Assembly: GCA_944377765.1 (NCBI GenBank)
Contig: CALWFX010000031.1
Coordinates: forward strand, 1-38,629
Source of the DNA: an uncultured Clostridia bacterium
GTDB taxonomy: Bacteria; Bacillota; Clostridia; Christensenellales; UBA1242
Direction: 5' to 3'
Length of the DNA: 38,629 nucleotides
The notes beneath the pieces were generated by a model. It was not told the DNA's origin, ran no database searches, and was given only the letters and a program-made list of their open reading frames with translations. The position numbers and the translations under genes are program-made. Positions within the stretch are counted from its first letter, which is position 1, and every line of letters starts with the position of its first letter. Below, piece by piece: positions 2,690-25,176 of this stretch.

Positions 2690-4927
2690 ATGAAGGAAGA
2701 ATTTAAAGAGTTTTGGAAGGGTTTTAAAGGTGGTAATTGGGAAGAAAATATTGATGTTTTCAATTTTATAGAAAATAACTATAAAGAATATAAAGGGGAC
2801 GATACTTTTCTTGCATCAATATCTCCAAAAACAAAAAAAGTTTGGCAAAAATGTGAAAAACTTTTGCAAGAAGAAAGCAAAAAGGGTCTTTTGGATGTTG
2901 AACTTGATGAAGTTTCTGGGATAACCAATTTTAAGCCGGGATATATTGATAAGAAAAACGAAGTTGTTTTTGGTTTGCAAACTGATAAACCATTAAAACG
3001 CATTGTCAATCTTTATGGTGGAACAAGAATGGCAGACAAGGCACTTGCCGCATACAACAAACAATTAAATCCAACTCTTGAAGGATATTTTAAAGAATTC
3101 AGAAAAACTCATAATGATGGCGTTTTTGATGTCTATACTCCAGAAATTAGAAGAGCACGCAAGGCAGGTCTTTTAACAGGTCTTCCTGATGCATATGGCA
3201 GGGGAAGAATTATTGGAGATTATCGTAGAGTTGCACTTTATGGTATTGATAAACTTATTGAATTTAAACAAAAAGATTATGCTGAAATTGATGTTTCAAG
3301 CGAAGAAAACATCAGACTTCGTGAAGAAGTTATGGAGCAGATTAGGGCTTTGAATAAAATTAAAGAAATGGCAAGTTCATATGGATTTGACATTTCAAAA
3401 CCTGCAAAAAATGCTCAAGAAGCAGTGCAATGGTTATATTTTGCTTATCTTGCAGGCGTCAAGGAAGATAATGGCGCTGCAATGAGTTTGGGCAGAACTT
3501 CAACTTTTCTCGATATTTACATTGAAAGAGATTTGCAAAAGAAAGTGCTAACAGAAGAAGAAGCACAAGAACTTATTGATCAGTTTATCATTAAACTTCG
3601 CCTTGTTCGTCATTTAAGAACTCCTGAATATGACGAGATTTTTGCTGGCGATCCAACATGGGTTACTGAAAGTGTGGGTGGAATGCTTAATGACGAGAAG
3701 AGTTTAGTCACTAAAAACTCTTTCAGATATTTGCAATCACTAATAAATTTAAACCCATCACCAGAGCCAAATTTGACCATTTTATATTCTGAAAAATTGC
3801 CAGTAAACTTTAAGAAATTTTGTGCAAAAATTTCCATACTCACTGATGCCATTCAATATGAAGGCGATGATGTTATGCGTCCAATTTATGGCAGTGATTA
3901 TGCAATTGCTTGTTGTGTTTCTGCAATGAAAGTAGGCAAACAAATGCAATTTTTTGGAGCAAGATGTAATTTAGCAAAGACACTTCTATATTCTCTCAAT
4001 GGTGGTGTGGATGAAAAATCTGGAACTTTGGTTGTTGAAGGATTAAAGAAAAACACTGAAAAGATTTTGACTTTTGATAAGGTTTGGAAAAATTATCAAA
4101 AAACCATGAAACTTGTTGCAAAAACATATGTTGATGCCATGAATATAATTCATTATATGCATGATAAATACGCATATGAAGCTGCTCAAATGGCACTTCA
4201 TGACACTCATGTTGAAAGGCTTATGGCGTTTGGTGTTGCAGGATTTTCTGTTGCTGTTGATTCACTTTCTGCAATTAAATACGCAAAAGTTAAACCAATC
4301 AGAAATGAAGAAGGTGTGATTGTTGATTTTGAAGCTGAAGGCGATTTCCCTAAGTATGGAAATGATGATGACAGAGTTGATGAGATTGCAGTTGACCTTG
4401 TTAAATATTTTATGGAATGCTTAAATGCACAAAAACCATACAGAAATGCCAAACAGACACTTTCACTTTTAACAATAACCTCAAATGTTATGTATGGAAA
4501 GAAAACAGGAACAACTCCTGATGGCAGAAAAGCAGGGGAACCTTTTGCACCAGGAGCAAACCCAATGCATGAAAGAGATTGCTCTGGAGCACTTGCTTCT
4601 CTTAATTCTGTTGCAAAAATTCCATATTGTAATTGCTGTCAAGATGGTGTTTCAAACACTTTCTCAATTGTTCCAGATGCACTTGGAAAGGATGAAAAGT
4701 CAAGAGTTAAAAACTTGGTTAGTGTTTTAGATGGCTATTTTGTTCAAGGGGCACAACATCTTAATGTCAATGTTTTAAACAGAGACCTTTTGATTGATGC
4801 AATGAATAACCCATGGAAATATCCAAATTTAACAATAAGAGTTTCAGGCTATGCAGTTAATTTCAACAAACTTTCAAGGGCACACCAAGAAGAAGTTATT
4901 TCAAGAACTTTTCATATATCACGATAA
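2690..4927 (+). CDS. pflB: formate C-acetyltransferase (pyruvate formate-lyase, glycyl radical enzyme)
   Basis: 745 aa. The adjacent catalytic cysteine pair sits in [11 protein letters not shown]. The C-terminal glycyl-radical motif RVSGYAV is at nt 4838-4858. SD is AAAGGAG. The activase gene follows directly. Confidence 0.95.
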
Positions 4928-7859: not shown

Positions 7860-7946
7860 GAAAATATTTTAATATATTATAAATTAATTTTCAACTGATA
7901 TTCTAAGTTTTTTCTTTTTAACATATTATTTTTTAAGGAGTATGTG

Positions 7947-8198
7947 ATGGAAGAAAAAGTTGTGATTGAAAATAGAAAACTTTTAACAATTTTTGGGGCA
8001 ACCAGAGTTATTTCGTCAACAAGCAGTCAAGCGGTTGTGGAAGTTGGTGAAGCAAATATGGTTATTTCTGGCAATAATTTGGAGGTTGTTAAATTAAATT
8101 TAGATGATAAGGAAGTGGAATTTTCTGGAGAAATAAGTGGTGTTAAGTATATGGTCAAACATGAAAAGATTGGCTTTTTCAAAAGGATTTTTAAATAA
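7947..8198 (+). CDS. yabP: sporulation protein YabP
   Basis: About 83 aa. VVIENRKLLTIFGATRVISSTSSQAVVEVGEANMVISGNNLEVVKLNLDDKEVEFSGEISGVKY follows the YabP family pattern. I prefer ATG 7947 (AAGGAG 6 nt upstream) over the track's GTG 7944. The stop overlaps the yabQ start by 1 nt. Confidence 0.8.
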   Translation: MEEKVVIENRKLLTIFGATRVISSTSSQAVVEVGEANMVISGNNLEVVKLNLDDKEVEFSGEISGVKYMVKHEKIGFFKRIFK

Positions 8199-8590
8199 TG
8201 TTATATGAAACACTTGCTCAGCCATATATATTTTTAATTATAATTATTTCAGGTTTTTTAACTGGAATATTTTTTGATTTTTTAAATTTTATAAAAAATG
8301 TTATAAAAATTAAGTTTTTTTATAATTTTTTATTGTTTTTCTTCGTTTTTTTAACAATTTTTGTTTTCTATTATATAAATTTGAATTATAATTATGGAGA
8401 AATTAGAGTTTATACTCTTTTATCTTTTCTTTTAGCATTTATGATTGAAAGATTATTAATAGGAAATTTTGTTGCACATTTATTTGAAAAATGCTACAAT
8501 GTGTTTAAAGACAAAAGGGAAGATAAAAGTGAAAGTAAATCTAAAAAGAAAAGAATCAAAAGAGTCTATAGACGAGAAAAAAGAAAGTAA
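8198..8590 (+). CDS. yabQ: spore cortex biosynthesis protein YabQ (membrane protein)
   Basis: 130 aa, hydrophobic. It has the YabQ-like segment NYGEIRVYTLLSFLLAFMIERL and a basic tail. It keeps the conserved position directly after yabP, with a TAATG overlap. Confidence 0.7.
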   Translation: MLYETLAQPYIFLIIIISGFLTGIFFDFLNFIKNVIKIKFFYNFLLFFFVFLTIFVFYYINLNYNYGEIRVYTLLSFLLAFMIERLLIGNFVAHLFEKCYNVFKDKREDKSESKSKKKRIKRVYRREKRK

Positions 8591-8753
8591 ACAAGAGAAT
8601 AAGAAGGTCTTTAAAATAGTTTCTACCATTCTTTTGTGCCTGTTTATTGTTGCAATAATTGTGGAAATTGTTGTTATTTGTGTTCTAAATTCTAAGATTG
8701 ACCAAACAAAAGATGATATAAACAATATCCCAAGTGTGAGTGAAAAATATTAA
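8529..8753 (+). CDS. small single-pass membrane protein (start uncertain; occupies the position held by divIC in Bacillus)
   Basis: The ORF is open from 8469. The best start is GTG 8529, with AAGGGA 8 nt upstream. It has a Lys/Glu-rich N-terminus, one TM helix (FKIVSTILLCLFIVAIIVEIVVICVL) and a tail of only about 25 aa. It overlaps the yabQ 3' end, and a terminator follows. Confidence 0.4.
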   Translation: MKVNLKRKESKESIDEKKESKQENKKVFKIVSTILLCLFIVAIIVEIVVICVLNSKIDQTKDDINNIPSVSEKY

Positions 8754-8783: not shown

Positions 8784-8812
8784 AAAAATTCCATTTTTTT
8801 GGAATTTTTTCT
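8784..8812 (+). terminator. rho-independent terminator ending the yabP-yabQ unit
   Basis: Stem aaaaattcc / ggaattttt (9 bp) with a T-rich loop and a T-rich tail. Confidence 0.55.
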
Positions 8813-8923
8813 ATTATTTTTGCTGTTTTAAAAATAATTTATAATTTTATTTTTAATTAATTTTTTAAAAAATGTTTTATTATTTATATAATATATTTTA
8901 TTTATATTTTTTATCATTTTTAT

Positions 8924-8953
8924 TTGATAAATTCCCCCTTTAAGTGTTACAAT
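8924..8953 (+). promoter_or_regulatory. candidate sigma-A promoter of giant gene 1 (extended -10)
   Basis: TTGATA at 8924-8929, an 18-nt spacer containing a C5 run (8934-8938), then TGtTACAAT with TACAAT at 8948-8953. It lies 42 nt upstream of the ATG at 8995. Confidence 0.5.
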
Positions 8954-8994
8954 AAATATATTAAAAGTGAACTAAAAGAAGGGAGTGAGTGTTT

Positions 8995-11900
8995 ATGAAA
9001 AGAATTAACATTTTGTTGGTTTCAATTTTTACCGTTCTTATTGGGACTTTTCTTTCTGCATGTAACTTTAAAAATCAAACAGCAGAGTTTTCAGTTGCTG
9101 AAATTAAAACTTCAATCGGACAAGAGATTAATTTGGATGATTATCTTGAAACAAAAGAAGTTGATAAAAATGAAATCACTTTTAAATTTTCTAACTCTTC
9201 ACTCTTTTCAATTTCTGATCACACAATAACTGCTTTAACCCACGGGCAGACAATGGTTTATGCTACATATCAAAACAACATTCTTGCAGATATGAAACTT
9301 ATTGTTAAAAAACCTTTTGAACAAGTTGCAAATATTAAAATGGACGATATGGGACTTGTAACTTGGAACAAGGTGGTTGACAAATTTGATGAAACAGAAG
9401 ATTTCACTTCTCCTTCTCAATATAAAATTAATTTTGCTTATGAAAATATGGACACTGGCGAGCAAAAAAATTATGATGAATACATAGCAACAAATAGTTT
9501 TCAACTTGTTGAAAATGGAAAATACACTCTGTCTATAATTGCTTGTGGAGAAGGTAACTTTGATAATTCTCAGGCATCTTATATCACAGTGTATTTTGGA
9601 TATATGGCAAAACTTATAAAGTCAGATTTTTCTTTTGATAGTAGCACTAACATTGTATCATGGTCAAGTGTCAGCGATGCAAGTTATTCTGTTATATTTA
9701 ATGGCAAAGTGATAAGCGAAAAGCAAAGCGATAATTTTATTAAAATTTCAAGTTCGCTTGAAACTTTATCTTCTGGAAGTTACGAACTTTCTGTTGTTGT
9801 TCACGATAAGAATTCTGAAAAAATTAGTGTGGAAAGCGAAAGCATTTCAATAAACAAACTGAATGCTCCAACTTTTGAAAATCTTTTTGATGAGGAAAAA
9901 GGTGGTAGATATCAAATTTCTGCTCCTGAACATTTTAAAAATGTGGAAGTTAAAGTTGGAGATGAATATACCTTTAATTTCACTGAAAATATCAATGAAA
10001 CCACTTTTGAAGGTGTGGCAGAAGGAAAATATCAAGTTTCGGGCAAGGCTTTTGCAAATAGTAGTGATGAACAAGGTGTGTTTTATGCAGATAGTGATAG
10101 TGTTGAACTTGGAAAAATTTATAAACTTGGCAAGTTGACTTTGCAAGGAACTGGCGAAAACGAAGAAGATGCAACAACATTTAATTTTAATGTGGAAAGA
10201 AATTTTGATAACTATGAAAGCAATATCAAGATGGTTTTATCTGGTGCAAAAGAAAATGAATATGTTGAAAATGGTTTCACTTTGAGTGAAAAATTGATAA
10301 ATAAAGAAGTAACTGATTTAGAAAGTGGAAGTTATAATCTTTCTGCATTTGAGTTTGCTGGGCAACAAAATGTTAACATTGAAGGGGAAGATTTTGCTAT
10401 CATCAATGGCGATGAAAGTGAAAAAGTGAATTTTGTTAAACTTGATGCTTTTCAAGAATTTGATGATGGTAACATAATTAAACATTCTTATGTTGAAGGC
10501 AACTCAGTTTTTGAATTTAATATTGTTTCATATGCAACCAATTATAGTTTATATGTTAAAAATGGCGAAGAATATAATCTTGTTGAAAACACTCTTTATG
10601 ATTATGCTGATGGAAAGATAACCTTTAATGGCAAAGTTGAAAATCTTTTTGCTGAAAACATTAGTGAACAGCAAATTGAGTTCAAGTTGGTGGCAGAAAA
10701 TGAAGATAGATTGAATTACATTTTCTCTTCCACATTAAAAAGTTTTGAGATTTTGGATACTCCAACAAGTGATGGTGGAAATGTTGCAGGGGATGTTTTT
10801 ACCTTTGATGCAGTTGAAAATGCCGGAAGTTATTTAGTGCGTTATGCTATGATTGACAAGGCAAGTTTTGAAAGTGGAGTTGATGATATAGAAACTGAAA
10901 GTATGTCTTTTACCACAAAAGAGATTTTTGAAGAAAGTATCACTCTTGTAAGTGGTAATTATTACTATGTTGAAATTGTTGCAAATCCAGAAAATTCCAG
11001 TTTATATTTAACTTCAAATGTATTTAAAAAAGTGTTTTATCTTTCAAAACCACTTGAAACACCAGTTGTTTCTTTTGGTTATAATGAAAGTTATAAGGGT
11101 GTTATTACAGATGCAAGTGGATATTTTTTGAAAGTTGAAAGTGTTGAAAATCTTGAAAGTTTAGTTGTTACAAAGGATACTCTTGCAATTGAAAAATATA
11201 CAGATGATGGAAAGGCAACAATATATCTTTTTACAGATAGTTTTAGCGGTGGCAAAACATCTAATATTTCAGTTGTTGCTCATTCTGTTGACCCAACAAT
11301 TTACACAGATAGTTTACCATACAATTTGGAAATATCACGAATTAAAAGAGTGGAATATTCAGACTTAATTTTTGACGAACTTACAAAAAATTTAACAGTT
11401 AAGGGTGGAATTGAAGGAGCAACAAATATTCGTATTTATGAAAGCGAAAGTAATCAAGTTGAAAGACCTAACACCGACACAACTTTGCCTGTTTGGAAAA
11501 TTACCAATAGTTCAATTCAAATAGATGTTGATGGCAGTGCTTTGAATGATGAATACTTTGAAATTGTTGACAACAAGGTTTATCTTGACAGTGAAACAGC
11601 AACTTTTAATATTAGACGACTTGAAAAGCCAACTGAATTTGCTTTCTATAATGGAAATTTGACCTTTACTGCAACACCTGACCTTGTGGAATATTTTGTT
11701 TTAGATATGTTTGTGGAAGATGCCAATGGTGCTCAAACACTTTTGAAAGTAAATTTAACATCACCAGAAATTGATGTTGATGTTTATAAAGTGCAAGACG
11801 AAGATTTATTGCTTATAGAACAAGATATAAAACTTACACCAGAAAGCGAAATTGTGGCTGGCGAGGGCGAATATACCATAGATTTTAACGCATTATTAAC

Positions 11901-14900
11901 TTTAATTAAGGGAAATGAAAAGTTATATGCTTATTATTCTCAGTCATTAAAAGTGGAGTTTTCACTCTATTCATATGTAACCACTTTGGCAACTTCAATT
12001 TATCTTTCTTCCTATAACGCCACTCTTAAAGATAATGCTAGTGGGGACAGATTGATAATTGAAAAAATGGAGAGTCCAGTTATAAGTTATAACAAAGAAA
12101 CATCAAATTTAAGTTGGCAAAAGGTTGGCGAAGAAAGTGCGGAAACCGAATATGTTGTTTACGATGCTTCAAGTGGAGAAAAACAAGAAATTTCTCGTTC
12201 AAATGCCACATCATATGTTGTTGATTTGTCTAAACTTACCTTATCCACCGATTATAAATATGTTGTTGTTGCAACAAATCCATATTATCTTGAATCAGGA
12301 GAGTCTAATGAAATTTTAATTCATAAATTAAGCGGTATTGATAAAGTTAAATTGTCAGATAATAAACTTCAACTTTCCGCTTTAACACAAGATGCTAATT
12401 TTGTGGAAAAAACAATTCTAACCATTGATGATGGAGATGAAATTTCAATAACAAACTATGAACATACTATTTCCGCAGTTGGTAATTATAAGTTTAAATT
12501 TGTTGCAACAGAAAGTTTTGAAAGCGAAGGAAAGTTTTATATTGATTCTAGCGTTTCTTCCTTTACTGTAAATAATCTTTCTTCAATTGCACCAAGTGAT
12601 ACCACTGTGAAATTTGTGGATAACACTGTAAGTTTTGAAACTTTTGGACAAGATAAAAACCTTCAAAGTTTAAAATATTTGATTATTTTTGTTGATGAGC
12701 AAGGGAATATGGCACAAGTTTCAACAAAAGAAAATAGTTTTGTTATTGATGGTCAAGACGAACTTAATCCATTAAACAAATTGATTGCAGGAAAAATTGA
12801 TATTAAAGTTTACGCAGTTTTAGATGCTTACAACATTTCAAGTGGCGGAGAAGTTTTCTTTAACACAGAATTGTCTTTGGTAAATGGCGAAAAGATTTAT
12901 AATGCTTTTGAATATTCAAGTGATAAAAGCATTAGCAAACTTTCCACACCAATAATTTCAAATATTGAATTTGTTGAAAACAATGACTCACAACGACCAA
13001 CAATGAAACTTACTGTAAGCGGAAATTATAGCACAAATGAAACATTGTTAATTTTTGTTGGAAATTATACCGATTATATTTTTGAATATCCTTGCATAGA
13101 CGCAGAAGAAAATGTTGTGGAAATTGCCTTTGACCAATATTCTGACTATTTTGCAGTTGGCGAAGAAACTGAAATATTTGTCTATGTTAAAAGTAATAAC
13201 AACTTGCCTTCTTCATTTGGTTCGGCTAAGGTATATAGAAGTCCAGCGCTTGTGAATCTTGAACAAAACAGAAGTCAAGATAGTATATCCTATGTTCAAA
13301 ATGTTACTTTCACTTTTGAAAGCGAAGAAGTTGTTAAATATGCCACAGGTGGAATAACTTTGATTGTGAACTATACCACAAACGATGAAGAAAAAACAGA
13401 AACAATAAATGTTCCAGCTGATACCTTTGTGGATGGCAATAAAATTACATACAGTTTGATTAATTTCTTTAATCAAAACATGAAAAATGGTGGACAACTT
13501 TATTATCAGGCATTTGTGAACAATTATAGTAATTCAGCAAGTGGCAAATATTGCTTGTCATCAGAATCAATTTCAACTGAAACATATTACATACTTGAAA
13601 GTCCAAGTGATTATATTGAAAAGGTTGCAGGCGGAATAATTATTGGCGAAAAAGAAGATGGAACACTAATTAACTCTGAAAACACCAAATACGTTGTAAC
13701 AAAAGGCAGTGAACGCTTTGAAATTACCTTGCAAGATGGAAGATATTATTTTGAATATCCAACTGATTGGGAAAATGGCAGTCATACTTTTACAGTTGTT
13801 GCAATGCAAGACAATATGATTAATTCAAATGTTGCAACAGTGAATTTAGAAATGCAAAGGTTGGAAAAGGTTAATAACATAATTTTCAAGCGTGAACAAG
13901 GTTTGCAAGATTTAACATTATCTTGGGATGCAGTTGCAAATGCTGACAGTTATATGATTAGAGCATATGCTGACAATGATATTTTGATAAATGAGTTTGA
14001 AACAAGCTCAACATCATTTTTGATGACTGAAATTTTTGGTGAAAACTATGAAAAATTGGGCTCATATATAAGTCAAGGTGCACAAATTAGATTTGAAATT
14101 ACATCTTGTTCAAATAGCAACACTTTTAACAATTCTTCAATTCAATATGTAAATGCTGATTTTCTTGGAACGAATATAACAGTTCTTGATTTTGTGGTGG
14201 GCGAAGATGGACAACTTTATTTTAAAACCGAAGCTGGTAAAGATTATATGTATCGAGTTGTTGATGTCAGTGGTGCTGAATATTTAGGCTGGCAACAAAT
14301 AACTGCAGATGCTGAAAGTTATGTTATAGATTTAACCCAAATTGAAACATTAACTTCGGCAAACACCTTTAGGGTGCAAGTCATAACAACTGGTAATGCT
14401 GAAACTTCTGGAATAATTTATAATGACGATGCAATAAAACTTGTTATAGATTCAGCAATGGTTGCAAGTGAAGATGCTTTTATGCTCTCTCCTACTGCTC
14501 ACGAAGTTAAACCACACTACACCGATTTAAGTAAAGTTTGTGTCTCTCTTGAAGACCAAAATTCAGTGATTTATGCCAGTCTTTCTTCAAATTATGATTT
14601 TGATAATGTGATTAAACTTGACATAGATTATGCAAATATTCTTGAAGATAATGGCTATTATCTATATCAAATGGATTACACAGGCATATTCGATATGTTT
14701 GGAATTACAGAAACAACCAATATATACTTCTTTGTTAAAAAGTCAGGAGAAGAAGCTAATTATGTTATTTCTAAACCTTTTGAATATGAGTTTAAAATAG
14801 ATAATTCAACAAGTTTTATTAGCATTGAAAAAAATGTTGTTTCTGATGAAGAAGACTATGTGAACACTTATTTAACTTATGAAAAGCAAGATGGCGAAGA

Positions 14901-17900
14901 TATGGATAAAGTGTTAAACAACTTTGACATTCAAGGCTTTTACATAAAAATTGTTCATACTTCTTTGGAGGGAGAAGTAACAACAATTAAAGCAATTTAT
15001 AATAAGATTAATTTGGTTGAAGATATATTTGAAGATAAAATTGCTCTTAACATCACATATTTATTAAGTGAAGATTGCTTGGATGTCGATGAAAATCCTG
15101 TCGACCAAGGTGCTGGCAGTTACAAAATTTATATAAGCAATATCAAGGTTGTTAATGAAGGAACTGAAGATGAGCCTGTTTATATCACTTACTTTAGTCC
15201 TTATGTGGAAACAACCACAGGTGGCGAAGAATTTGTGTTTGAAAAATTACCTGAAATGTCGAGCGTGTACTTAAATAATGGAGACCTTTACTGGACATAT
15301 GACGCAGAAATGATGGGAAAGGTAACAAAGTATTACATATATTACATCAGCACTTCAAATTATAAAGATTATAATATTTATAAAACACAAAACAACACTC
15401 AAAATTCTTATAGCGGACTTCTTTTTGCTGGCGATAGCAATGCTTACAACATTTCAGTTCAGCCTGTTAGCAGTGACCCAAAAATTATTGCAGGTAATGA
15501 AAAGTATGTGGCAGATTCTGATGGAACTCCAATTAATGTTGTGAAAAACAGATTTAATAACACTCTTCATCTTTCAACAAATGGAACACTTTCAGTTAAC
15601 TGGAATGCCAATGTTGAAGATTCAACCACTGATCATGACATATATAAGTTATTAAAGCAGGAAAATATTACTGCAGAAATGGCTAACGATTTTATACATG
15701 AAACAATCTACTATCCTTTCACCTTTAATGTCAGCGAACTTGTTTATGGCTCAACAAAGGTAAGGTTTAGATTTACTTCATATCGAACAGATGATAAAAG
15801 TGAAATAGCTTTTCGTCGCTCAGTTGATGTGGATGCCATTTATCTTTTAGGAAATATCATCAATGAAGGATTTACTCTTGAAGAATTTGAAGGAAAACTT
15901 GACGAAATAAGTAATTTATTGGTTAACACTGCAGATAAAAACATAGTGCGTGACTTTAAATCTGTTATAAAAGCAAGGATGGGTGGAATTGGAAACTATA
16001 TCAATATTTTTGATGATTTCTTTGAGATTGTTCAAGAAGGAAAATATGAAATAGAATATTGTTTACTTGGAAATTCTTCAACATTAAATTCTGTTTGGTA
16101 TCAGTTAACTCAAGATGATGGCTCAAAAGATTTTTACATTAATCCAACTCCAAGTGTTGTTGCTGACAGGTCAGATGAACCTGTTGATGGAATTTCATAT
16201 GAATACTTTATTAAAGTTAGACAAAGCAACATCTATCTTAAAGATGGCTCAAAAGAACTTGCAAACACATATTTTATTCAAATGAAAACCAACAACGAAA
16301 CCAAAAAATATGGTTTTGAAATAAGCACTCAAGATAGTGGCAACACTTGGTCTCTTAAAATGGTGGGAAACGACAATGTTGCATCATATAATATCGATCA
16401 AGAAATTGTTTCTGAAAATGAAAAATATTTAATCATTTACTTTAACTTACATGATGGGCGTTCAATTAAAGCACAATATAACGATTATGTTAAAAATGAA
16501 GATTTTGCTTTGGAACTTTTTGCACAAGGGAACGCTGTTTCTTTGTCAAGTAAGTCTTCAAGATTTACAGTGTCTTTCTATAATGCTTGCGATTCTTTCA
16601 AAATTGAAGATGGAAAATTCTCTTGGATTTCACACTTAAATAACCCAACTAACATTTTATATAAATTTAAAGATGACAACAAAGAACAACCTGCAACCGC
16701 AGTTGCAGAACAAAACAGAATGTCTTATTTCAGCCTTGAAGGAAAACCAACTGGACTTTATGAATATATCAAATTTGTAACAGAAGGCAGAGTGGAAGGC
16801 AACACGATAAGAATTGACAGTGAAGTTTACACAATCAATAATGTATATAAACTTAATTCGCCAAGTTTGAACACAAGCCTTAATCTTATTTCAGTTGACG
16901 ACACTGCAAATGATAAGTTCTATACTGATAAGGCATATAGCGATAATGAATTCCACCGCTTTAAAGTTTACAACGATATATCCACAGAAAATTCAAGTTA
17001 TATTTTTCCATCTGGTGAAGCGGTTGGATATTATCAGCCGGGTATTACAAACTATCTTTCAACAGATGTTGACTATGCTTATAAAGCAACAGAAGAGTCA
17101 GCAAGCAAGTTCTATTTCACCAGTCTTGGAAGTACAGCAACTTTCAGCACAATATTGGACAGCAGTGATGCTTCTCATAATAATTATACCTTTAAAATTG
17201 CTGGCCATGAAGATGAAGATTTGTCTGTTTGTGTTATGTCTTCAGTTAAAGAATTTAATGCTAAAATGTTGAAGCCTGTTTCTGACATTTTGGTTGGAAA
17301 TGGAATAATCACATGGAACAATTTTAATGTTTTGGGTGAAGAAACTTATGATGAAGAAAACTACAGCATGGTGTATAAGGTATCAATGTCTTTCTATGAA
17401 AGAAATAACAGCAGTGCTGGAACAACTGAAGACATTGTGGGAACTCCAATTGAATGTTATACAACAAAAACCATGTTTGACACATCTAAAGTGGAAGATA
17501 AATTCCCACAAGGCTCTTACAGTTTCCTTAAAGTTACAATTCAAGCCATGATTTTAAGTTTGGTTGAGAATCCAACTTCTGAAAACTATGTTGAACTTGT
17601 GGAAGGCGGATATGCTCAGGGACAAAATATTACATATACAAGTATATCTAATAACATTTTAATTTCAAATGGCGAAGAAATTAATGATATTCAATTCTCT
17701 AAACCTGTTACTAACATCAAGGTTATATCTGATGAAGGCGACACCTATGGTAAAATTTCTTGGGAATACAGCGGAAATGCTAACTTTATTGTGGAAGATG
17801 AAAATGGGGAAGAAGTAAGTGGCAGTATTGCTAACAATTCTAATACTTATATTTTCACACCAAATGCAAATGAACTTGAAGGTGGAGAACATAAGTTGAC

Positions 17901-19710
17901 AGTTTATGCAACATCTTTGGATGGTGGAAATGTTGTTAAATCAAATGGTGTCGATATAACAATTTATAAACTCCAGAATTTCGGTCAAAACCCTGATGGC
18001 AACTATGAAATTTTTGAAGATACAAAAGAATTGTCAAATGGCGAAAGCATGAGTGTTGAAATAATTGATTTTAGTAAATATTTTGATAGTATACCTGAAA
18101 ATATTAATGCAACAGTAAATGTTTCATATCAAGTTGAAGAAGAGTCTCACAATGTAATCTTAACAAAAGATAATTCAACAATCATAATTTTAACAGAAGC
18201 ACTTGCTGAAAATGTTACATTTAAAGAAAACGAAAGTTATATTGTAATTGAAAGCAGTCTTGACTTAACCATTAAAGTTACAGGCAAGTATGCGGATTCA
18301 ACACTCTTTAACATTTTGAATGCTGATGAATATATTTTACATCTTGAAAGACCAAAGAATAACTATGTTATTTCTTGGGATACAATTAAGCAAATCTTCA
18401 CATGGCAACTTGAAGAAGGAGCAGAAAAGCAAGATGAAGATGCAATTGTTTTCGTTGTTACTGTAAATTATTTGCAAGGTGGCATGGATGGAACAATAAG
18501 AAGATATGAGATGACTGAAAAAGAATTTATGCCAACAATAATTCACGATAGTATCAAAATGGAACTTGCAGTTAAATTTGGCGAGCAGGGACTTATGTCT
18601 AACGCAGTTGCATATAATGGCGAGCAAGGCGATGCAGTTAGTTTCAACTTGTTTACAAGCGGAGATGGAACATCAGAAAATCCATATGTTATTGACGATG
18701 AAAACGAGTTTAAGAATATGCAATATAGAATGACAAAACCATCTTACTTAAATTCCTATATTGAATATCAAAATGGCGAACCAACTCAAAAAACAGAACT
18801 TGAACGCTTCTATTTTGAAATAAAATCTAAGTCAAACTTAAATATACAATTCGAAGAAGAGCAGGGTATTTTGTTTAAGGGAACTTTTGATGGAATTTTA
18901 AGAGGTAATGACAGCACGATTAACTTTACAACAAAATCAGTTGAAAAGTTATCTTCAAATGTTGTTATCAAAGATGGAGTTGTTAAAAGTTTGGAAAGTG
19001 GGCAGTCTACCACAACATTCAGTTATGGAATAAGTTTGTTTGAAAATATTGGTGCCAATTCTTCAATATCAAACTTAACCATAACTCCAAATTTAACTGC
19101 AAACGAAGTTATAACAACTCATGCGCTTATATCTGGTCTTGCAATTAACAACAGGGGAACAATAACCAATGTCAGCATAGGCGGAATGACATCAAACCTT
19201 GTGGTTTTCAAAAGCACAGAATCACTTATTGGTGCATATAGCGGAATTGTCAGTGTGAACAGCGGAACAATTTCATCATGCAGTATCAATGGAGATATCA
19301 TTCTTTCTGACACAAGCAGTGTAAGTGGAGAAGAGAAAGTGTATGCTGAAAACTTCTTTGTTGGTGGAATTTGCTATACCAATTACAGAGAAATAAGAAA
19401 CTGCGTTTTAAGAGCAAACATTTCTCTTTCAATTGGAAGCAATATGATGACAACTCATCAACTTGCTGGTTTTGCTGTTACATCAACTGAAACTGGAACT
19501 CTTTCAAATAATCAAATTGAAGCGAATGCAGGGGAAACTTATAAAGTTCAAATCACCTGTTTAACAACAAATCAATGTCGTGCCTATGTTGCTGGCATTG
19601 CAGTTTATGGGAAGGGTTCAATTAACAACAATGTTTCAAACGAAGGTTGTGCAGTTGCAAACAATGTAACAGAACCATACATTGCAAATGATATTGTTGA
19701 AGGCATTTAA
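8995..19710 (+). CDS. giant surface lipoprotein (3,571 aa): Big_2 domain, about 30 divergent FN3/Ig-like modules, C-terminal GLUG-like beta-helix; adhesin-like
   Basis: Uninterrupted ORF. I prefer ATG 8995 (GGGAG 9 nt upstream) to the track's GTG 8989. The N-terminus MKRINILLVSIFTVLIGTFLSAC carries a lipobox (L-S-A-C, Cys codon at 9061-9063). The body shows recurrent module signatures such as xxxW..V..A..Y and linkers such as KLNAP, LDTP, LETP, LEKP, MESP and LSTP about every 100 aa. There is no C-terminal LPXTG or TM segment. Confidence 0.9.
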   Translation: MKRINILLVSIFTVLIGTFLSACNFKNQTAEFSVAEIKTSIGQEINLDDYLETKEVDKNEITFKFSNSSLFSISDHTITALTHGQTMVYATYQNNILADMKLIVKKPFEQVANIKMDDMGLVTWNKVVDKFDETEDFTSPSQYKINFAYENMDTGEQKNYDEYIATNSFQLVENGKYTLSIIACGEGNFDNSQASYITVYFGYMAKLIKSDFSFDSSTNIVSWSSVSDASYSVIFNGKVISEKQSDNFIKISSSLETLSSGSYELSVVVHDKNSEKISVESESISINKLNAPTFENLFDEEKGGRYQISAPEHFKNVEVKVGDEYTFNFTENINETTFEGVAEGKYQVSGKAFANSSDEQGVFYADSDSVELGKIYKLGKLTLQGTGENEEDATTFNFNVERNFDNYESNIKMVLSGAKENEYVENGFTLSEKLINKEVTDLESGSYNLSAFEFAGQQNVNIEGEDFAIINGDESEKVNFVKLDAFQEFDDGNIIKHSYVEGNSVFEFNIVSYATNYSLYVKNGEEYNLVENTLYDYADGKITFNGKVENLFAENISEQQIEFKLVAENEDRLNYIFSSTLKSFEILDTPTSDGGNVAGDVFTFDAVENAGSYLVRYAMIDKASFESGVDDIETESMSFTTKEIFEESITLVSGNYYYVEIVANPENSSLYLTSNVFKKVFYLSKPLETPVVSFGYNESYKGVITDASGYFLKVESVENLESLVVTKDTLAIEKYTDDGKATIYLFTDSFSGGKTSNISVVAHSVDPTIYTDSLPYNLEISRIKRVEYSDLIFDELTKNLTVKGGIEGATNIRIYESESNQVERPNTDTTLPVWKITNSSIQIDVDGSALNDEYFEIVDNKVYLDSETATFNIRRLEKPTEFAFYNGNLTFTATPDLVEYFVLDMFVEDANGAQTLLKVNLTSPEIDVDVYKVQDEDLLLIEQDIKLTPESEIVAGEGEYTIDFNALLTLIKGNEKLYAYYSQSLKVEFSLYSYVTTLATSIYLSSYNATLKDNASGDRLIIEKMESPVISYNKETSNLSWQKVGEESAETEYVVYDASSGEKQEISRSNATSYVVDLSKLTLSTDYKYVVVATNPYYLESGESNEILIHKLSGIDKVKLSDNKLQLSALTQDANFVEKTILTIDDGDEISITNYEHTISAVGNYKFKFVATESFESEGKFYIDSSVSSFTVNNLSSIAPSDTTVKFVDNTVSFETFGQDKNLQSLKYLIIFVDEQGNMAQVSTKENSFVIDGQDELNPLNKLIAGKIDIKVYAVLDAYNISSGGEVFFNTELSLVNGEKIYNAFEYSSDKSISKLSTPIISNIEFVENNDSQRPTMKLTVSGNYSTNETLLIFVGNYTDYIFEYPCIDAEENVVEIAFDQYSDYFAVGEETEIFVYVKSNNNLPSSFGSAKVYRSPALVNLEQNRSQDSISYVQNVTFTFESEEVVKYATGGITLIVNYTTNDEEKTETINVPADTFVDGNKITYSLINFFNQNMKNGGQLYYQAFVNNYSNSASGKYCLSSESISTETYYILESPSDYIEKVAGGIIIGEKEDGTLINSENTKYVVTKGSERFEITLQDGRYYFEYPTDWENGSHTFTVVAMQDNMINSNVATVNLEMQRLEKVNNIIFKREQGLQDLTLSWDAVANADSYMIRAYADNDILINEFETSSTSFLMTEIFGENYEKLGSYISQGAQIRFEITSCSNSNTFNNSSIQYVNADFLGTNITVLDFVVGEDGQLYFKTEAGKDYMYRVVDVSGAEYLGWQQITADAESYVIDLTQIETLTSANTFRVQVITTGNAETSGIIYNDDAIKLVIDSAMVASEDAFMLSPTAHEVKPHYTDLSKVCVSLEDQNSVIYASLSSNYDFDNVIKLDIDYANILEDNGYYLYQMDYTGIFDMFGITETTNIYFFVKKSGEEANYVISKPFEYEFKIDNSTSFISIEKNVVSDEEDYVNTYLTYEKQDGEDMDKVLNNFDIQGFYIKIVHTSLEGEVTTIKAIYNKINLVEDIFEDKIALNITYLLSEDCLDVDENPVDQGAGSYKIYISNIKVVNEGTEDEPVYITYFSPYVETTTGGEEFVFEKLPEMSSVYLNNGDLYWTYDAEMMGKVTKYYIYYISTSNYKDYNIYKTQNNTQNSYSGLLFAGDSNAYNISVQPVSSDPKIIAGNEKYVADSDGTPINVVKNRFNNTLHLSTNGTLSVNWNANVEDSTTDHDIYKLLKQENITAEMANDFIHETIYYPFTFNVSELVYGSTKVRFRFTSYRTDDKSEIAFRRSVDVDAIYLLGNIINEGFTLEEFEGKLDEISNLLVNTADKNIVRDFKSVIKARMGGIGNYINIFDDFFEIVQEGKYEIEYCLLGNSSTLNSVWYQLTQDDGSKDFYINPTPSVVADRSDEPVDGISYEYFIKVRQSNIYLKDGSKELANTYFIQMKTNNETKKYGFEISTQDSGNTWSLKMVGNDNVASYNIDQEIVSENEKYLIIYFNLHDGRSIKAQYNDYVKNEDFALELFAQGNAVSLSSKSSRFTVSFYNACDSFKIEDGKFSWISHLNNPTNILYKFKDDNKEQPATAVAEQNRMSYFSLEGKPTGLYEYIKFVTEGRVEGNTIRIDSEVYTINNVYKLNSPSLNTSLNLISVDDTANDKFYTDKAYSDNEFHRFKVYNDISTENSSYIFPSGEAVGYYQPGITNYLSTDVDYAYKATEESASKFYFTSLGSTATFSTILDSSDASHNNYTFKIAGHEDEDLSVCVMSSVKEFNAKMLKPVSDILVGNGIITWNNFNVLGEETYDEENYSMVYKVSMSFYERNNSSAGTTEDIVGTPIECYTTKTMFDTSKVEDKFPQGSYSFLKVTIQAMILSLVENPTSENYVELVEGGYAQGQNITYTSISNNILISNGEEINDIQFSKPVTNIKVISDEGDTYGKISWEYSGNANFIVEDENGEEVSGSIANNSNTYIFTPNANELEGGEHKLTVYATSLDGGNVVKSNGVDITIYKLQNFGQNPDGNYEIFEDTKELSNGESMSVEIIDFSKYFDSIPENINATVNVSYQVEEESHNVILTKDNSTIIILTEALAENVTFKENESYIVIESSLDLTIKVTGKYADSTLFNILNADEYILHLERPKNNYVISWDTIKQIFTWQLEEGAEKQDEDAIVFVVTVNYLQGGMDGTIRRYEMTEKEFMPTIIHDSIKMELAVKFGEQGLMSNAVAYNGEQGDAVSFNLFTSGDGTSENPYVIDDENEFKNMQYRMTKPSYLNSYIEYQNGEPTQKTELERFYFEIKSKSNLNIQFEEEQGILFKGTFDGILRGNDSTINFTTKSVEKLSSNVVIKDGVVKSLESGQSTTTFSYGISLFENIGANSSISNLTITPNLTANEVITTHALISGLAINNRGTITNVSIGGMTSNLVVFKSTESLIGAYSGIVSVNSGTISSCSINGDIILSDTSSVSGEEKVYAENFFVGGICYTNYREIRNCVLRANISLSIGSNMMTTHQLAGFAVTSTETGTLSNNQIEANAGETYKVQITCLTTNQCRAYVAGIAVYGKGSINNNVSNEGCAVANNVTEPYIANDIVEGI
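9088..9312 (+). other. Big_2-like bacterial Ig domain at the N-terminus of giant protein 1
   Basis: FSVAEIKTSIGQEINLDDYLETKEV...ITFKFSNSSLFSISDHTITALTHGQTMVYATYQNNILADMKLIVKK matches the Big_2 pattern (...G....l.......v....v.w.SSn..vA.v...G.vtA...G.a.I.a...g....v.v). Judged by eye. Confidence 0.6.
9313..18640 (+). repeat. protein-level array of roughly 25-32 highly divergent ~100-aa beta-sandwich (FN3/Ig-like) modules
   Basis: Conserved-Trp module starts include GLVTWNKV (W at 9364), NIVSWSSVSDASYSVIF (W at 9661), NLSWQKVGEESAETEYVVY (W at 12115), LTLSWDAVANADSYMIRAY (W at 13924), DLYWTYDAE...YYIYYIS (W at 15292), KFSWISHL, GIITWNNF, GKISWEYSG and VISWDTI. I noticed no near-identical DNA repeats. 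The module count is an estimate from linker spacing. Confidence 0.55.
18661..19707 (+). other. C-terminal right-handed beta-helix / GLUG-like module of giant protein 1
   Basis: It starts with GDGTSENPYVIDDENEFKNM, the GxGTxxxPYxI entry motif, followed by FKGTFDGILRGNDSTINF. After that come about 22-aa rungs with I/V-x-N and G-(G/L)-x-x-x motifs: ISNLTI, ISGLAINNRGTITNVSI, YSGIVSVNSGTISSCSI, FVGGICYTNYREIRNCVL, LAGFAV, VAGIAVYG. Confidence 0.6.
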
Positions 19711-19715
19711 AGAAT

Positions 19716-19767
19716 AAAAAGAAGAGATTATGAATAGAATTTATCTATGAAAAAATCTCTTCTTTTT
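19716..19767 (+). terminator. long interrupted hairpin after giant gene 1 that overlaps the start of the next gene (terminator and/or translational occlusion)
   Basis: A perfect 14-bp inverted repeat pairs aaaaagaagagatt (19716-19729) with aatctcttcttttt (19754-19767). An inner 5-bp stem pairs ataga (19734-19738) with tctat (19744-19748). A T-rich run follows. The ATG at 19747 sits inside the structure. Confidence 0.5.
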
Positions 19768-20607
19768 CTTTTTGCAATTTTGTTTTGTGCTTTTCCTTTT
19801 ATTAATTCAAATTATGCAATGGCAGAAAATGACTATAAAAATAGCATTGAACTAATAAAAATTTCTTCTTCAAGTCAAAACGAGTTTGCCTATCTTTTTC
19901 CTGTGAACTCTAAAAAATTAAAAGAGATTGTTGACGACAGCATTTTAATTGAAGGTTTTAAATTTTATCTTAAAAGCAATGTCAATGTTTTAAGAAATAG
20001 TTATAACGAAAAGGCAAAGGATATTGAAGGTATGGCAGTGTCTGATGTTAAATATTACACAGATTATGATGCAATAGGTTTTGAAATTTCCTTTTCAACT
20101 TTGGAAGCATATTACAAATTTTTTGGAGAAAATAACACAAGTAATGATACTAACAAAAAGTCAAGTGGATTATTTTGGAAAAGAAAAGAATATGAAATTA
20201 ATTTTCCTTTTTCAGTTAAATCTGCTGACGCGTTTAGAAAAATGTATTCAAACTTAATTGCCACTTGGGGAGCAACTTTTGAAGTTAACGAAGAGAATTT
20301 AGAAGAACTAATAAATATATTTAATGAAACAACTTTCACATATGAACTCATTTCAGCAAGCGGTCAAATACACAGCGAAAATTCATTTGAAGTTAATGGT
20401 GTTCATTATAACATTTTTGAAAAATCTTATGAAGAGTTAGAAAAAGACAGCACAATAAAATTTTACACAATAAGCGTAAACGCAGGTTGGTGGTATTTTT
20501 TTGCTTTACTATTCACTCTTTTAGCAACTATCATAATTTTTCTTGTAATTAAATTTAAAAAAAGTTTTCCACAAATTAGCAAGTTTTCCACAAATCAAAT
20601 AAATTAA
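19747..20607 (+). CDS. hypothetical type-I membrane protein (cleavable signal peptide plus C-terminal TM anchor)
   Basis: 286 aa. The N-terminus MKKSLLFLFAILFCAFPFINSNYAMA looks like a signal peptide (A-M-A site). The C-terminus has the TM segment GWWYFFALLFTLLATIIIFLVI followed by the basic tail KFKK. There is no obvious SD. I recognise no family. Confidence 0.65.
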   Translation: MKKSLLFLFAILFCAFPFINSNYAMAENDYKNSIELIKISSSSQNEFAYLFPVNSKKLKEIVDDSILIEGFKFYLKSNVNVLRNSYNEKAKDIEGMAVSDVKYYTDYDAIGFEISFSTLEAYYKFFGENNTSNDTNKKSSGLFWKRKEYEINFPFSVKSADAFRKMYSNLIATWGATFEVNEENLEELINIFNETTFTYELISASGQIHSENSFEVNGVHYNIFEKSYEELEKDSTIKFYTISVNAGWWYFFALLFTLLATIIIFLVIKFKKSFPQISKFSTNQIN

Positions 20608-22988: not shown

Positions 22989-24362
22989 ATGGCTGATTAC
23001 AAAATTTTACCTAATAGTATTGAATCTGAACAGGCTGTGCTTGGTTGTATATTGATTGACCAAGAAGCACAAACTGACATTTTGTCGTCTTTAAACAAGG
23101 ATGATTTTTATTCTGAATCTCACAGAAATATTTTTCAAGCAATGCAAACAATTTTTTCAAAAAGCATTCCAGTTGACTTTGTAACACTTACAAATGAACT
23201 TGAAATTGAGAAAAAACTTGAAACTGTGGGCGGAATTGACTACATAACATTTTTGACAAATGTTGTTCCATCAGCAGCGAATTTTAAACATTATTGTGAT
23301 ATTGTTTTATCGAATTCTGTTAGAAGAAATCTAATTAAAAGCGGTCAATCAATTATTGAAAATGCTTTTAATAATGGTGATGATAAAAGTGCCATGCAAT
23401 TTGCTGAAAAAACTATCTTTGATTTGTCTCAAAAACAACAAGATAGCGACCTTGAACTTGTGGGAAAACCGGGTGGCGTTTTAACAGAAGTTTTGAAAGA
23501 ACTAAGTGAAATTGCTGAAAATCAAGGAAAGATGCGTGGTATTCCAACAGGTTATAAAGACTTTGATGCAATCACAAATGGTCTTCAAAAAAGCGATTTG
23601 ATTTTGCTTGCGGCTCGTCCGGGTGTTGGAAAAACTTCCTTTGCCATGAACATTGCAACCAATGTGGCAATTGAACAAAATAAACGAGTGGCAATTTTTG
23701 ACCTTGAAATGAGCAAAGCCCAACTTATGCAAAGAGCACTTGCAAGTGTTGCAAAAGTTAATTTGACTCATGTTCTTCGTGGCACAATGGATCAAGACGA
23801 GTGGAAAAGGCTTTGGACAGCAGAGAAAAAACTTGCTGAAAGTTTAATCTATCTTGATGATTCTTCCATGACCACTCCACTTGATATTATTTCCAAATGT
23901 AGAAAACTTAAAATGACAGAAGGACTTGACCTTATTGTTATTGACTATCTTCAACTTATGAAAGCGAGCAACAAAGGGGAAAGTTCTGGTGGGAACAGAA
24001 CACAGGAAGTTAGTGACATAACAAGAATGCTTAAAGTTGCAGCGAAAGACCTTAATGTTCCAATTATTCTTTTGTCACAATTGTCGCGTATGGTTGAGCA
24101 AAGAGAAGACCATAGGCCAATTCTTTCAGACCTAAGAGAATCAGGTTCAATTGAACAAGATGCTGACATTGTGCTTTTTCTTTATAATCCAGAAAATTAT
24201 AATGATGTTATTTCCAATGAAGAACCGGGAACTGTGCATTTAATTATCGCAAAGCATAGAAGTGGTTCAACTGGAGAAGTTAAACTTAAATGGGTAAAAG
24301 AAATTACAACCTACATGAATATGCCAACAAATCATCAAGAACAAAGAGAAGGAGAAGAATAA
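22989..24362 (+). CDS. dnaB: replicative DNA helicase (DnaB family; DnaC in Bacillus nomenclature)
   Basis: 457 aa. The N-terminus LPNSIESEQAVLGCILID is typical of DnaB. It has Walker A ARPGVGKTSFAMN, Walker B LIVIDYLQLM, SQLSR and a RESGSIEQDAD motif. SD is AAGGAG. Confidence 0.95.
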   Translation: MADYKILPNSIESEQAVLGCILIDQEAQTDILSSLNKDDFYSESHRNIFQAMQTIFSKSIPVDFVTLTNELEIEKKLETVGGIDYITFLTNVVPSAANFKHYCDIVLSNSVRRNLIKSGQSIIENAFNNGDDKSAMQFAEKTIFDLSQKQQDSDLELVGKPGGVLTEVLKELSEIAENQGKMRGIPTGYKDFDAITNGLQKSDLILLAARPGVGKTSFAMNIATNVAIEQNKRVAIFDLEMSKAQLMQRALASVAKVNLTHVLRGTMDQDEWKRLWTAEKKLAESLIYLDDSSMTTPLDIISKCRKLKMTEGLDLIVIDYLQLMKASNKGESSGGNRTQEVSDITRMLKVAAKDLNVPIILLSQLSRMVEQREDHRPILSDLRESGSIEQDADIVLFLYNPENYNDVISNEEPGTVHLIIAKHRSGSTGEVKLKWVKEITTYMNMPTNHQEQREGEE

Positions 24363-25162
24363 TGAAAAAAGGAATTATTATAACATCAATTTTCATTGTG
24401 ATTGCAGTTGTTTTAACAATTGTGTTTATCAATCTTTTCAGAGAAAAAGACACAAGAGATTTATCAAATCAGGTGGTAAATGCAGTGCAAGGTGGATACT
24501 TGGATGACGAAAAGGAAGATGGCGAATTTCAAAAAATAGATGAATATTTCGCAGTGGTTTCAGCAAGTGCAAATGAATATGAAGTTGAAATAAGAAATGT
24601 TCAAAGGTTATATCATTCATATGTCATCATGGCAGATTTTTATAACAACGAAATGGTATTTACTGAATTTAATGATGTTTATAAAGAAAACAAGAAAAAT
24701 GCTATCAATGGCTTGAACGAAGCAAAACAAAAAGCAGAAGAAATGGTAGAATATATTGATAGCAATGCAGAAAAAATATCTGGAAGCACTTATTGGCAAG
24801 CAAGAACATGGGTTGATGTGAGAGATATGGCATTCACTTTTGTTGATGCAAACAATAAGTTGTTCGATGCTTTGCAAAATATATATCAAGGTTGTGTTAC
24901 TTCAAAACTTGCGAATAACGATTTTTCAACATTGGTTTTAAAAACAATTAACAGTGAAGCAAAAAATGTTAGAGAAAATATAAGTGAAGAAATGTTGTCT
25001 ATTGATTGTGTTGTTAACATGACAACCACATACCTACAAAATGGTTACACAAAAATTATGAATTATTTATATGATGCCAGTCTTCAAACAGCAGTTGCTG
25101 ATATCAACAAAAATGGCGAAGAAAGTTCTTATTATCAAAATCTTCTTAATGGAACTTTATAA
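24362..25162 (+). CDS. hypothetical membrane-anchored extracytoplasmic protein (N-terminal TM), distant paralog of the next gene
   Basis: I prefer ATG 24362 (TAATG overlap with the dnaB stop, GAAGGAG 8 nt upstream) to the track's 24290, which overlaps dnaB. The protein starts MKKGIIITSIFIVIAVVLTIVFINLF and continues with about 240 aa that look helical. Confidence 0.7.
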   Translation: MKKGIIITSIFIVIAVVLTIVFINLFREKDTRDLSNQVVNAVQGGYLDDEKEDGEFQKIDEYFAVVSASANEYEVEIRNVQRLYHSYVIMADFYNNEMVFTEFNDVYKENKKNAINGLNEAKQKAEEMVEYIDSNAEKISGSTYWQARTWVDVRDMAFTFVDANNKLFDALQNIYQGCVTSKLANNDFSTLVLKTINSEAKNVRENISEEMLSIDCVVNMTTTYLQNGYTKIMNYLYDASLQTAVADINKNGEESSYYQNLLNGTL

Positions 25163-25176
25163 TTAAAGGAGTGAAT

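Follow-up and report, generated by a model that had tools for sequence, protein, structure and literature searches.

Giant adhesins built from tandem immunoglobulin-like (Ig) or fibronectin type III (FN3) domains are a known kind of protein. SiiE, LapA, and MpIBP exceed 3,000 amino acids (aa), carry tens of Ig-like domains, and keep the N-terminus held at the cell with the ligand region at the distal C-terminus; they leave the cell by type I secretion, are retained at the outer membrane, and contain highly similar Ca-binding BIg repeats. The Gram-positive fibrillar adhesins (SasG/Aap, Rib/alpha-C, SraP, and Ebh) have an N-terminal adhesive domain and a C-terminal LPXTG motif, and periscope proteins project a functional domain on length-variable, rod-like stalks of near-identical repeats. 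Here, we analyzed a 38,629-nucleotide (nt) stretch from an uncultured Clostridia bacterium (positions 1–38,629 of contig CALWFX010000031.1, assembly GCA_944377765.1; this whole stretch of DNA is called the window) that contains a giant gene encoding a 3,571 aa protein. We judge it slightly better than an even bet that this protein is a fibrillar adhesin of inverted polarity, anchored by a lipid at its N-terminus.

The giant gene and its predicted N-terminal anchor

The giant open reading frame (ORF) runs in a single frame on the forward strand, from an ATG at position 8995 to a stop codon at 19708–19710, and contains no internal stop. From base composition, we estimated that ~8% of random codons would be stops at 31% GC, so 3,571 codons could not have remained open by chance. 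The ATG at 8995 was preferred over a GTG at 8989 because the GTG lies too near the Shine-Dalgarno sequence AGGGAG and because orthologs begin with MKK-.

The giant ORF is real and conserved. An identical 3,571 aa product was present on two contigs, and another 3,571 aa member of the same 90%-identity cluster came from a different assembly. Other species-level clusters each hold one length (3,746, 3,769, 3,796, or 3,646 aa), which is shared by as many as 18 independent contigs, and full-length members inside each 90%-identity cluster differ by a few residues at most. An exhaustive phmmer search of 1.84e9 representative proteins with residues 2372–3571 as the query recovered 65 proteins, nearly all 3,126–4,041 aa long, that matched along the whole of the query. 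We also used BipA, which is encoded downstream, as bait and fetched 80 loci from uncultured Clostridia metagenome-assembled genomes (MAGs). The upstream flank was complete in 63 of them, and 55 of these had a giant ORF that ended 0.9–3.4 kb upstream of bipA; these ORFs were collinear with the window protein at identities from 62% down to ~22%. More than 50 full-length orthologs share the same architecture, from the lipobox to a predicted C-terminal β-helix. In eight loci (L031, L049, L068, L070, L073, L074, L080, and L081; BipA 82–89% identical), bipA was not directly preceded by a giant ORF; part of the clade may have lost or moved the gene, or these genomes may come from a neighboring lineage.

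In the closest genome (L002), the giant gene product was 62% identical to that of the window, versus 97% for BipA. The nonsynonymous rate (dN) of the giant gene was ~10 times that of BipA, and its ratio to the synonymous rate (dN/dS) was ~0.18 against L002, within a range of ~0.18–0.34, with dS saturated between the species compared; the gene therefore evolves fast yet is under purifying selection. A word-indexed homolog search returned no match for the N-terminal 1,200 aa and only the protein's own fragment for the middle 1,171 aa. With the giant protein as the query, no related loci were found among GTDB representative genomes, whereas the BipA bait succeeded. Since the exhaustive search and synteny both recovered relatives, the family had been missed by the word index. 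The window protein also had no significant match in Pfam, NCBIfam, or PDB sequences (phmmer), the best Pfam score being 22 bits for Big_13 against a cut-off of 27 bits, and the only source name that we found for a relative was "hypothetical protein".

The N-terminus, MKRINILLVSIFTVLIGTFLSAC, has a basic n-region (K2 and R3), an uncharged hydrophobic core, and the lipobox L-S-A-C ending at Cys23, with no charged residue at positions -10 to -1. It conforms to the PROSITE PS51257-type lipoprotein rule, which asks for K/R among residues 1–7, a hydrophobic core free of charges, and [LVI][ASTVI][GAS]C with the Cys at 15–35. The lipobox was present in 47 of 51 full-length orthologs, and the Cys23 column was 96% conserved. 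A regular-expression and hydrophobicity scan of the protein found no LPXTG motif, no C-terminal hydrophobic/charged tail, and no transmembrane (TM) segment after the signal peptide; the chain ends within the β-helix domain. Sortase anchoring was ruled out, as LPXTG is absent. From these sequence features, we infer that Cys23 is lipidated and that the N-terminus is anchored at the surface. No lgt or lspA gene, whose products would modify and cleave such a protein, is visible in the window, although no search aimed at them was made. The initial annotation, made from the DNA letters without database searches, had described a classical lipobox (LSAC) and an N-terminal lipid as the sole visible anchor, and both descriptions hold. 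So does its statement that the gene carries no near-identical DNA repeats: we found no tandem repeats either, and the longest direct repeats were 21–37 nt at 70–86% identity.

The module array and the predicted C-terminal β-helix

We divided the chain between the lipobox and residue 3212 into 29 modules (M1–M29) of 83–205 aa, with a mean of 110 aa. Boundaries were drawn from DSSP strings, an [IV]-x-[KR]-[LM] junction motif, and conserved first-strand Trp columns, and from the motifs only for residues 24–1195. AlphaFold2 was run on two tiles, each aligned with 20 full-length orthologs. The tile covering residues 1201–2399 (model me7a9cabb7286) had a mean predicted local distance difference test score (pLDDT) of 83.1, with 42% strand and 12% helix by DSSP; the tile covering residues 2400–3571 (model m094013c923fc) had a mean pLDDT of 83.6, with 51% strand and 5% helix. 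At E ≤ 1e-3, Foldseek found 251 and 79 PDB matches for the two tiles, respectively. The lists were headed by tandem FN3/Ig arrays, namely the ectodomains of OSMR, gp130, LIFR, and the leptin and IL-12/23 receptors, and further top matches were contactins, fibronectin FN3 4–7 and 7–10, and thick-filament chains (titin or MyBP-C by our reading of the entries). Complement and TEP chains, which consist of macroglobulin domains, were also matched, as were the GhpA fiber of Aureispira (9flw) and the BSP domain of Bap. The best match (gp130/OSMR tandem FN3, tile 1201–2399) had an E value of 1e-13 and a probability of 1.0, at sequence identities of 7–12%.

In these models, residues 1201–3212 are a β-sandwich array. 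The predicted FN3-like fold of the window protein rests on structure search and not on Pfam fn3 membership: fn3 (PF00041) did not match the window protein at E ≤ 1, and it matched 3 of 13 full-length orthologs (best 1.9e-6); others matched Ig-like families. Trp residues at 2544, 2774, 2923, and 3137 are conserved at 90–100%. M22 is mixed α/β in the model (26% strand and 30% helix by DSSP); its conserved motifs include PFTF and LFD..FE..Q.G.Y..EYCL.G, and the residues G2331, F2339, D2340, and G2349 do not vary, with other positions conserved. We dropped a thioester-domain interpretation of the "EYCL.G" motif because no Cys-x-Gln motif could be read in the sequence.

When the single sequence was compared with itself by BLAST or by an iterative hidden Markov model (HMM), one module pair was recovered at most (E 3e-4). 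We then compared module profiles from a 52-sequence alignment all-against-all with HHalign (435 pairs) and observed 52 pairs at a probability of ≥50% and 26 pairs at ≥80%, versus 0 of 435 reversed-profile controls at either level. Taking links of ≥50% over at least 30 aligned columns, 21 of the 29 modules fell into one network (M2–M14, M16–M18, M21, M24, M26, M27, and M29). The strongest pairs included M3–M4 (95.9%) and M2–M7 (94.5%), and the pairs M3–M13, M4–M24, and M3–M27 (all ≥91%) link the unmodeled modules M2–M12 to the modeled FN3-like modules. The junction motif [IV]x[KR][LM] is conserved at residues 288, 377, 482, 782, 875, 1024, and 1111, and the family profile weakly matched titin and neogenin FN3 domains (E 0.15–0.19; profile positions 1023–1087, roughly M11). 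The eight singletons at the profile level were M1, M22, and six larger β modules (M15, M19, M20, M23, M25, and M28).

Each module has a positional ortholog across 50 full-length relatives, within narrow length ranges, except M16–M18 and M29. Per-module length percentiles indicate that M16–M18 are apparently missing in a minority of orthologs, probably the shorter ones of ~3.1–3.3k aa (about 3,130–3,280), and many orthologs have an extra 75–150 aa insertion at M29, just before the β-helix. The array is unlike repeat-number-variable stalks, because it combines positional orthology with an absence of DNA repeats and a constant length within clusters. As a separate observation, the apparent loss of M16–M18 and the insertion at M29 were the only clear module gains or losses seen in the family, and they appear to occur in more distant orthologs (P0045–P0059, loci L045–L079).

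The last 359 residues differ from the array. In the AlphaFold2 model, residues 3213–3571 form an N-cap helix followed by many short repeating strands. A 57-sequence profile of this region matched PDB 3n6z_A (E 1.2e-5) over the 80-residue N-cap region only, through the motif LF-x-G-x-G-T-x-x-x-P-Y-x-I, and Pfam Glug (PF07581) matched 9 of 57 orthologs (best 6.5e-5) but not the window protein. We read residues 3213–3571 as a predicted GLUG-type right-handed β-helix whose exposed surface varies between species. At ≥70% conservation, nearly all positions hold Gly, Asn, or a hydrophobic residue; the polar ones are just T3226, R3245, which lies in the N-cap region, and E3350 (74%). No HExxH motif was found in the giant protein, and a protease reading was thus ruled out. 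A binding tip is favored over an enzyme because only structural residues are conserved and HExxH is missing. A literature search on GLUG and β-helix surface proteins found nothing specific.

The initial annotation had proposed one Big_2-like domain followed by ~9.3 kb of ~100 aa β-sandwich beads, about 30 in all, marked by a Trp, an A/S-x-Y motif, and K/R-L-x-x-P linkers. The recurring unit was borne out by the ortholog profiles (the 52 of 435 pairs above), while the proposed self-alignment of the single sequence, with its one pair, left it nearly invisible, and unit length ranges over 83–205 aa. The module count was close (29), although only 21 modules belong to the network and the last 1.07 kb lies outside the array. 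A β-sandwich fold was predicted for residues 1201–3212 at a pLDDT of ~83 but not for M22, and the last 359 residues are not beads but the predicted β-helix, the probable functional tip. Nor is the array uniform, for it comprises ~21 FN3-like modules, six distinct larger β modules, M1, and the α/β M22. Among the markers, [KR][LMI]xxP was enriched (7 observed versus 0.8 expected, z 7.5) at 6 junctions, whereas A/S-x-Y was not (8 observed versus 8.9 expected); the protein has 16 Trp residues in total and the family 18 conserved Trp columns, of which we estimate from the consensus that ~12–13 are of the first-strand "L-x-W" type, so these markers label a minority of modules. The proposed HMM check for fn3 and Big_2 gave no match in the window protein, including a Pfam scan of residues 24–112 for Big_2 (PF02368), and some in its relatives: besides the three fn3 matches, 4 of 24 orthologs weakly matched Big_2 at M1 (best 1.5e-3) and 5 of 24 matched HL_N-beta. 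The M1 profile matched PDB 7quz (E 3.8e-4) and, below threshold, intimin (E 0.21). The proposal of an old array without recent expansion was supported by orthologs of 22–62% identity that are collinear module by module.

Table 1. Positions of features in the window
Feature	Position	Strand	Basis or remark
Promoter-like site TTGATA-18-TACAAT with TG extension (extended -10)	8924..8953	+	Consensus match only, 10/12 positions; ~40 nt 5' of start codon
Shine-Dalgarno AGGGAG	8980..8985	+	Read from sequence; 9 nt 5' of ATG 8995
Predicted lipoprotein signal peptide, residues 1–23, lipobox L-S-A-C (Cys23)	8995..9063	+	Sequence; lipobox kept in orthologs
M1, residues 24–112, possible Big_2-like Ig domain	9064..9330	+	Weak ortholog/profile matches; HHalign singleton
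M2–M12, residues 113–1195, 83–149 aa each, FN3-like	9331..12579	+	HHalign profile homology
M13–M21, residues 1196–2180, predicted β-sandwich modules of 88–138 aa	12580..15534	+	AlphaFold2 tile model, Foldseek
M22, residues 2181–2385, mixed α/β, 205 aa, helical hairpin (~2295–2328)	15535..16149	+	DSSP on AlphaFold2 model
M23–M29, residues 2386–3212, predicted β-sandwich modules of 93–143 aa	16150..18630	+	AlphaFold2 tile model, Foldseek FN3/Ig arrays
Predicted GLUG-type β-helix, residues 3213–3571 (359 aa), probable distal tip	18631..19707	+	AlphaFold2 model, profile matches
Partner gene, 286 aa, signal peptide and C-terminal TM helix, no Pfam family	19747..20607	+	36 nt 3' of giant-gene stop
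Second giant ORF, at least 3,473 aa, N-terminal signal-anchor helix	28211–38629, runs off window end	+	Sequence

Neighboring genes

The giant gene lies within a housekeeping block: it is preceded by genes for an ATP-binding cassette (ABC) exporter, pyruvate formate-lyase (PFL) and its activase, CvpA, a pseudouridine synthase, YabP, and YabQ, and it is followed by genes for BipA, DnaB, and GltX. In 54 related loci (55 with L001, the window's own contig), the gene for the 286 aa partner comes directly after the giant gene, and it evolves as fast, with 59% versus 62% identity in the closest genome, where BipA is 97% identical. No terminator-like site was found between the two genes. Their adjacency in 54 loci and equally fast rate point to a two-gene cassette.

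The second giant ORF starts 8.5 kb beyond the first giant gene, and at least 33 related MAG loci preserve its N-terminal 1,500 aa in synteny. It had no Pfam match at E ≤ 0.01 and no BLASTP similarity to the first giant protein. By eye, we noticed a GLUG-like β-helix (FSGQFMGQGHTIYNL) and a similar unit near residue 600, together with Listeria-Bacteroides-repeat-like units near residues 2120–2340.

Two orphan envelope proteins are encoded between dnaB and gltX on the forward strand, one of 290 aa with an N-terminal TM helix (24290–25162) and one of 354 aa with a lipobox-like FAGC (25171–26235). In the closest genome, both have only 56–63% identity, against 91–97% for the flanking housekeeping genes. 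Upstream of the giant gene, positions 7944–8753 (+) hold yabP, yabQ, and then a small ORF (8469–8753) whose product is charged, contains a single TM helix, and may be DivIC/FtsB-like. An AT-rich hairpin with a T-run behind it (AAAAATTCCA-TTTTTTT-TGGAATTTTTT), read by eye at ~8790–8818 (+), separates the yabQ region from the promoter-like site; it probably terminates the upstream operon, and a terminator scan based on G+C missed it. The presence of yabP and yabQ means that sporulation genes are retained in a seemingly genome-reduced lineage, as reported for UBA1242 (PMC12306168).

Proposed function and comparison with known systems

One of the related loci (L027) belongs to a Candidatus Caccovivens sp. 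MAG, in which BipA is 88% and the giant ortholog 28% identical to the window proteins. Ca. Caccovivens corresponds to GTDB UBA11517 in the family UBA1242, order Christensenellales, and its type genome has 1.1 Mbp and 34% GC (PMC8035907). This BipA identity of 88%, together with the common gene order, indirectly suggests that the window's own organism is a member of UBA1242 as well. UBA1242 genomes are mostly <1 Mbp, are without many biosynthetic pathways and standard transporters, and unexpectedly keep sporulation genes; their bearers were proposed to be partner-dependent obligate symbionts or parasites (PMC12306168). In the text of that paper that was searched, no adhesin, giant protein, or lipoprotein is mentioned. 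In chickens, UBA1242 was associated with lower body weight (PMC13155120).

The adhesin reading builds on the ORF, the conservation of the lipobox, the array at residues 1201–3212, the β-helix, the internal homology, positional orthology, and synteny, and from there we infer lipidation, an extended geometry, a binding function, and the role of the partner. Two hallmarks of fibrillar adhesins were found, a predicted tandem β-sandwich stalk and a predicted lipid anchor at the surface. The protein would be exported by Sec and lipidated at Cys23, which would fix its N-terminus to the cytoplasmic membrane on the outer side. The ~29 mutually dissimilar tandem modules would build a long stalk, and the GLUG-type β-helix would form its distal end and binding tip. 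An Ig/FN3-type module measures ~3.5–4.4 nm; the stalk would be ~100–130 nm long if the chain is straight. Such a fiber would let genome-reduced gut Clostridia grip a partner cell, a host, or a particle surface, and the variable surface of tip and stalk would keep pace with rapidly changing ligands or help to escape immunity and phages. The 286 aa bitopic membrane protein probably helps to anchor, export, or assemble the fiber.

Several points weigh against the adhesin reading. The link of the window's organism to UBA1242 is indirect. The window protein had no significant match to Pfam adhesin, FN3, Big_2, or Glug models. The AlphaFold2 models cover residues 1201–3571, and residues 24–1195 are tied to them by profile homology. 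The predicted template modeling scores (pTM) of 0.48–0.51 do not fix the arrangement of the domains, so the chain could fold back or lie along the surface. Finally, no polar patch is conserved on the surface of the tip, which would suit variable specificity and a purely structural cap equally well.

The last of these points, the purely structural conservation of the tip, would also suit a surface coat or spacer: the protein would lie along or around the cell, forming a sheath, replacing an S-layer, or scaffolding the envelope, and its β-helix would self-associate. We regard such a coat as unlikely, although the Sap S-layer protein of B. anthracis appears in the Foldseek lists (probability 0.69), the giant protein is strongly acidic (537 D+E versus 260 K+R), its length is fixed inside species clusters, and a second giant surface protein is conserved alongside it. 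A Pfam scan of the protein and 12 orthologs found no SLH or CWB2 domain, and in the window protein it found no other wall-binding module either. A protein that carries a lipid anchor at one end and a different domain at the other is laid out like a tethered fiber, and S-layer proteins are usually far smaller and abundant.

A fiber tipped with an enzyme, whose β-helix would degrade polysaccharide or protein of a substrate or of a partner's envelope, is quite improbable. Right-handed β-helices often bear carbohydrate-active sites, and the best solved relative, 3n6z, is annotated as a "putative immunoglobulin A1 protease". The lineage must also take metabolites from outside (PMC12306168). Against this, the match to 3n6z spans the N-cap region only, the HExxH motif is missing, no acidic or His residue of the tip other than E3350 reaches 70% conservation, and no CAZy-type Pfam family was matched.

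We attach even less weight to the idea of a spore appendage or exosporium fiber, which draws on the position of the gene directly after yabP–yabQ and on the sporulation genes that UBA1242 retains (PMC12306168). The giant gene has its own promoter-like site, and the AT-rich hairpin and T-run read by eye separate it from yabPQ; the lipoprotein signal peptide would direct export over the cytoplasmic membrane of whichever compartment expresses the gene, and Pfam and NCBIfam scans showed no likeness to known coat, exosporium, or appendage families. As for an artifact, either the fusion of several genes by sequencing or assembly error that the initial annotation had itself raised or a decaying pseudogene open by chance, the sequence does come from a metagenome assembly and the word-indexed search was nearly empty, but the identical full-length protein in independent assemblies and the >50 full-length orthologs of one architecture exclude a fusion and, with the purifying selection and the high AlphaFold2 confidence, leave the idea next to no credit.

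We consider it possible, though doubtful, that the giant lipoprotein, its 286 aa partner, and the second giant, GLUG-bearing protein make up the cell-to-cell attachment apparatus of UBA1242 as an episymbiotic, genome-reduced Firmicute lineage. Were this true, the apparatus would correspond, in Gram-positive cells, to the attachment structures that were proposed for Patescibacteria and would dock onto a partner cell that supplies metabolites. This 10.7 kb gene occupies the same chromosomal site in dozens of species, with a second giant surface gene nearby, in a widespread uncultured gut lineage, and it offers a concrete, testable candidate for the partner-contact structure of UBA1242. The family is invisible to Pfam and NCBIfam. 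An array of modules with positional orthologs and dissimilar neighbors also bears on how repeat proteins avoid misfolding and recombination.

Compared with the Gram-positive fibrillar adhesins, the window protein is likewise an acidic extracellular protein with a tethered tandem β-sandwich stalk and a different domain at the far end. Its polarity differs, with a predicted lipid at the N-terminus and the tip at the C-terminus; its modules are not near-identical, no variation in length was seen between strains, and no Pfam family of stalk domains was matched. In size, in its Ig-like array, and in its predicted layout, with the N-terminus at the cell and the binding region at the distal C-terminus, it resembles SiiE, LapA, and MpIBP, but here the route is that of Sec and lipoproteins, the bearer is a Firmicute, and the modules are divergent. 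A rod of small β domains is shared with periscope proteins; however, high-identity DNA repeats are absent and length is constant in 90%-identity clusters, and membership among periscope proteins was ruled out because near-identical DNA repeats and repeat-number variation are both missing.

With PDB 3N6Z and Glug (PF07581), the tip shares the N-cap motif followed by G/N-rich repeats, which is a match of sequence only. The likeness to 3N6Z is at the profile level, there is no protease motif here, and 3N6Z has itself been assigned only a putative function. Eukaryotic tandem FN3 arrays (gp130/OSMR/LIFR, fibronectin, contactins, and titin) gave the best structural matches; at 7–12% identity and with no detectable sequence relation, this resemblance is one of fold and not of family membership. 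The grappling-hook fiber GhpA of Aureispira is also a giant β-sandwich surface fiber (PDB 9flw; Foldseek match 21 for tile 1201–2399, E 3e-9), yet it comes from a different phylum and no sequence similarity was found; GhpA is exported by another secretion route and bears a hook-like tip. Set beside these systems, three features of the window protein are unusual: the predicted lipoprotein anchoring with reversed polarity in a member of the Firmicutes, the conserved positions of tandem modules none of which closely resembles another, and the cost of a gene that takes up ~1% of a ~1 Mbp genome in a lineage suspected to depend on a partner.

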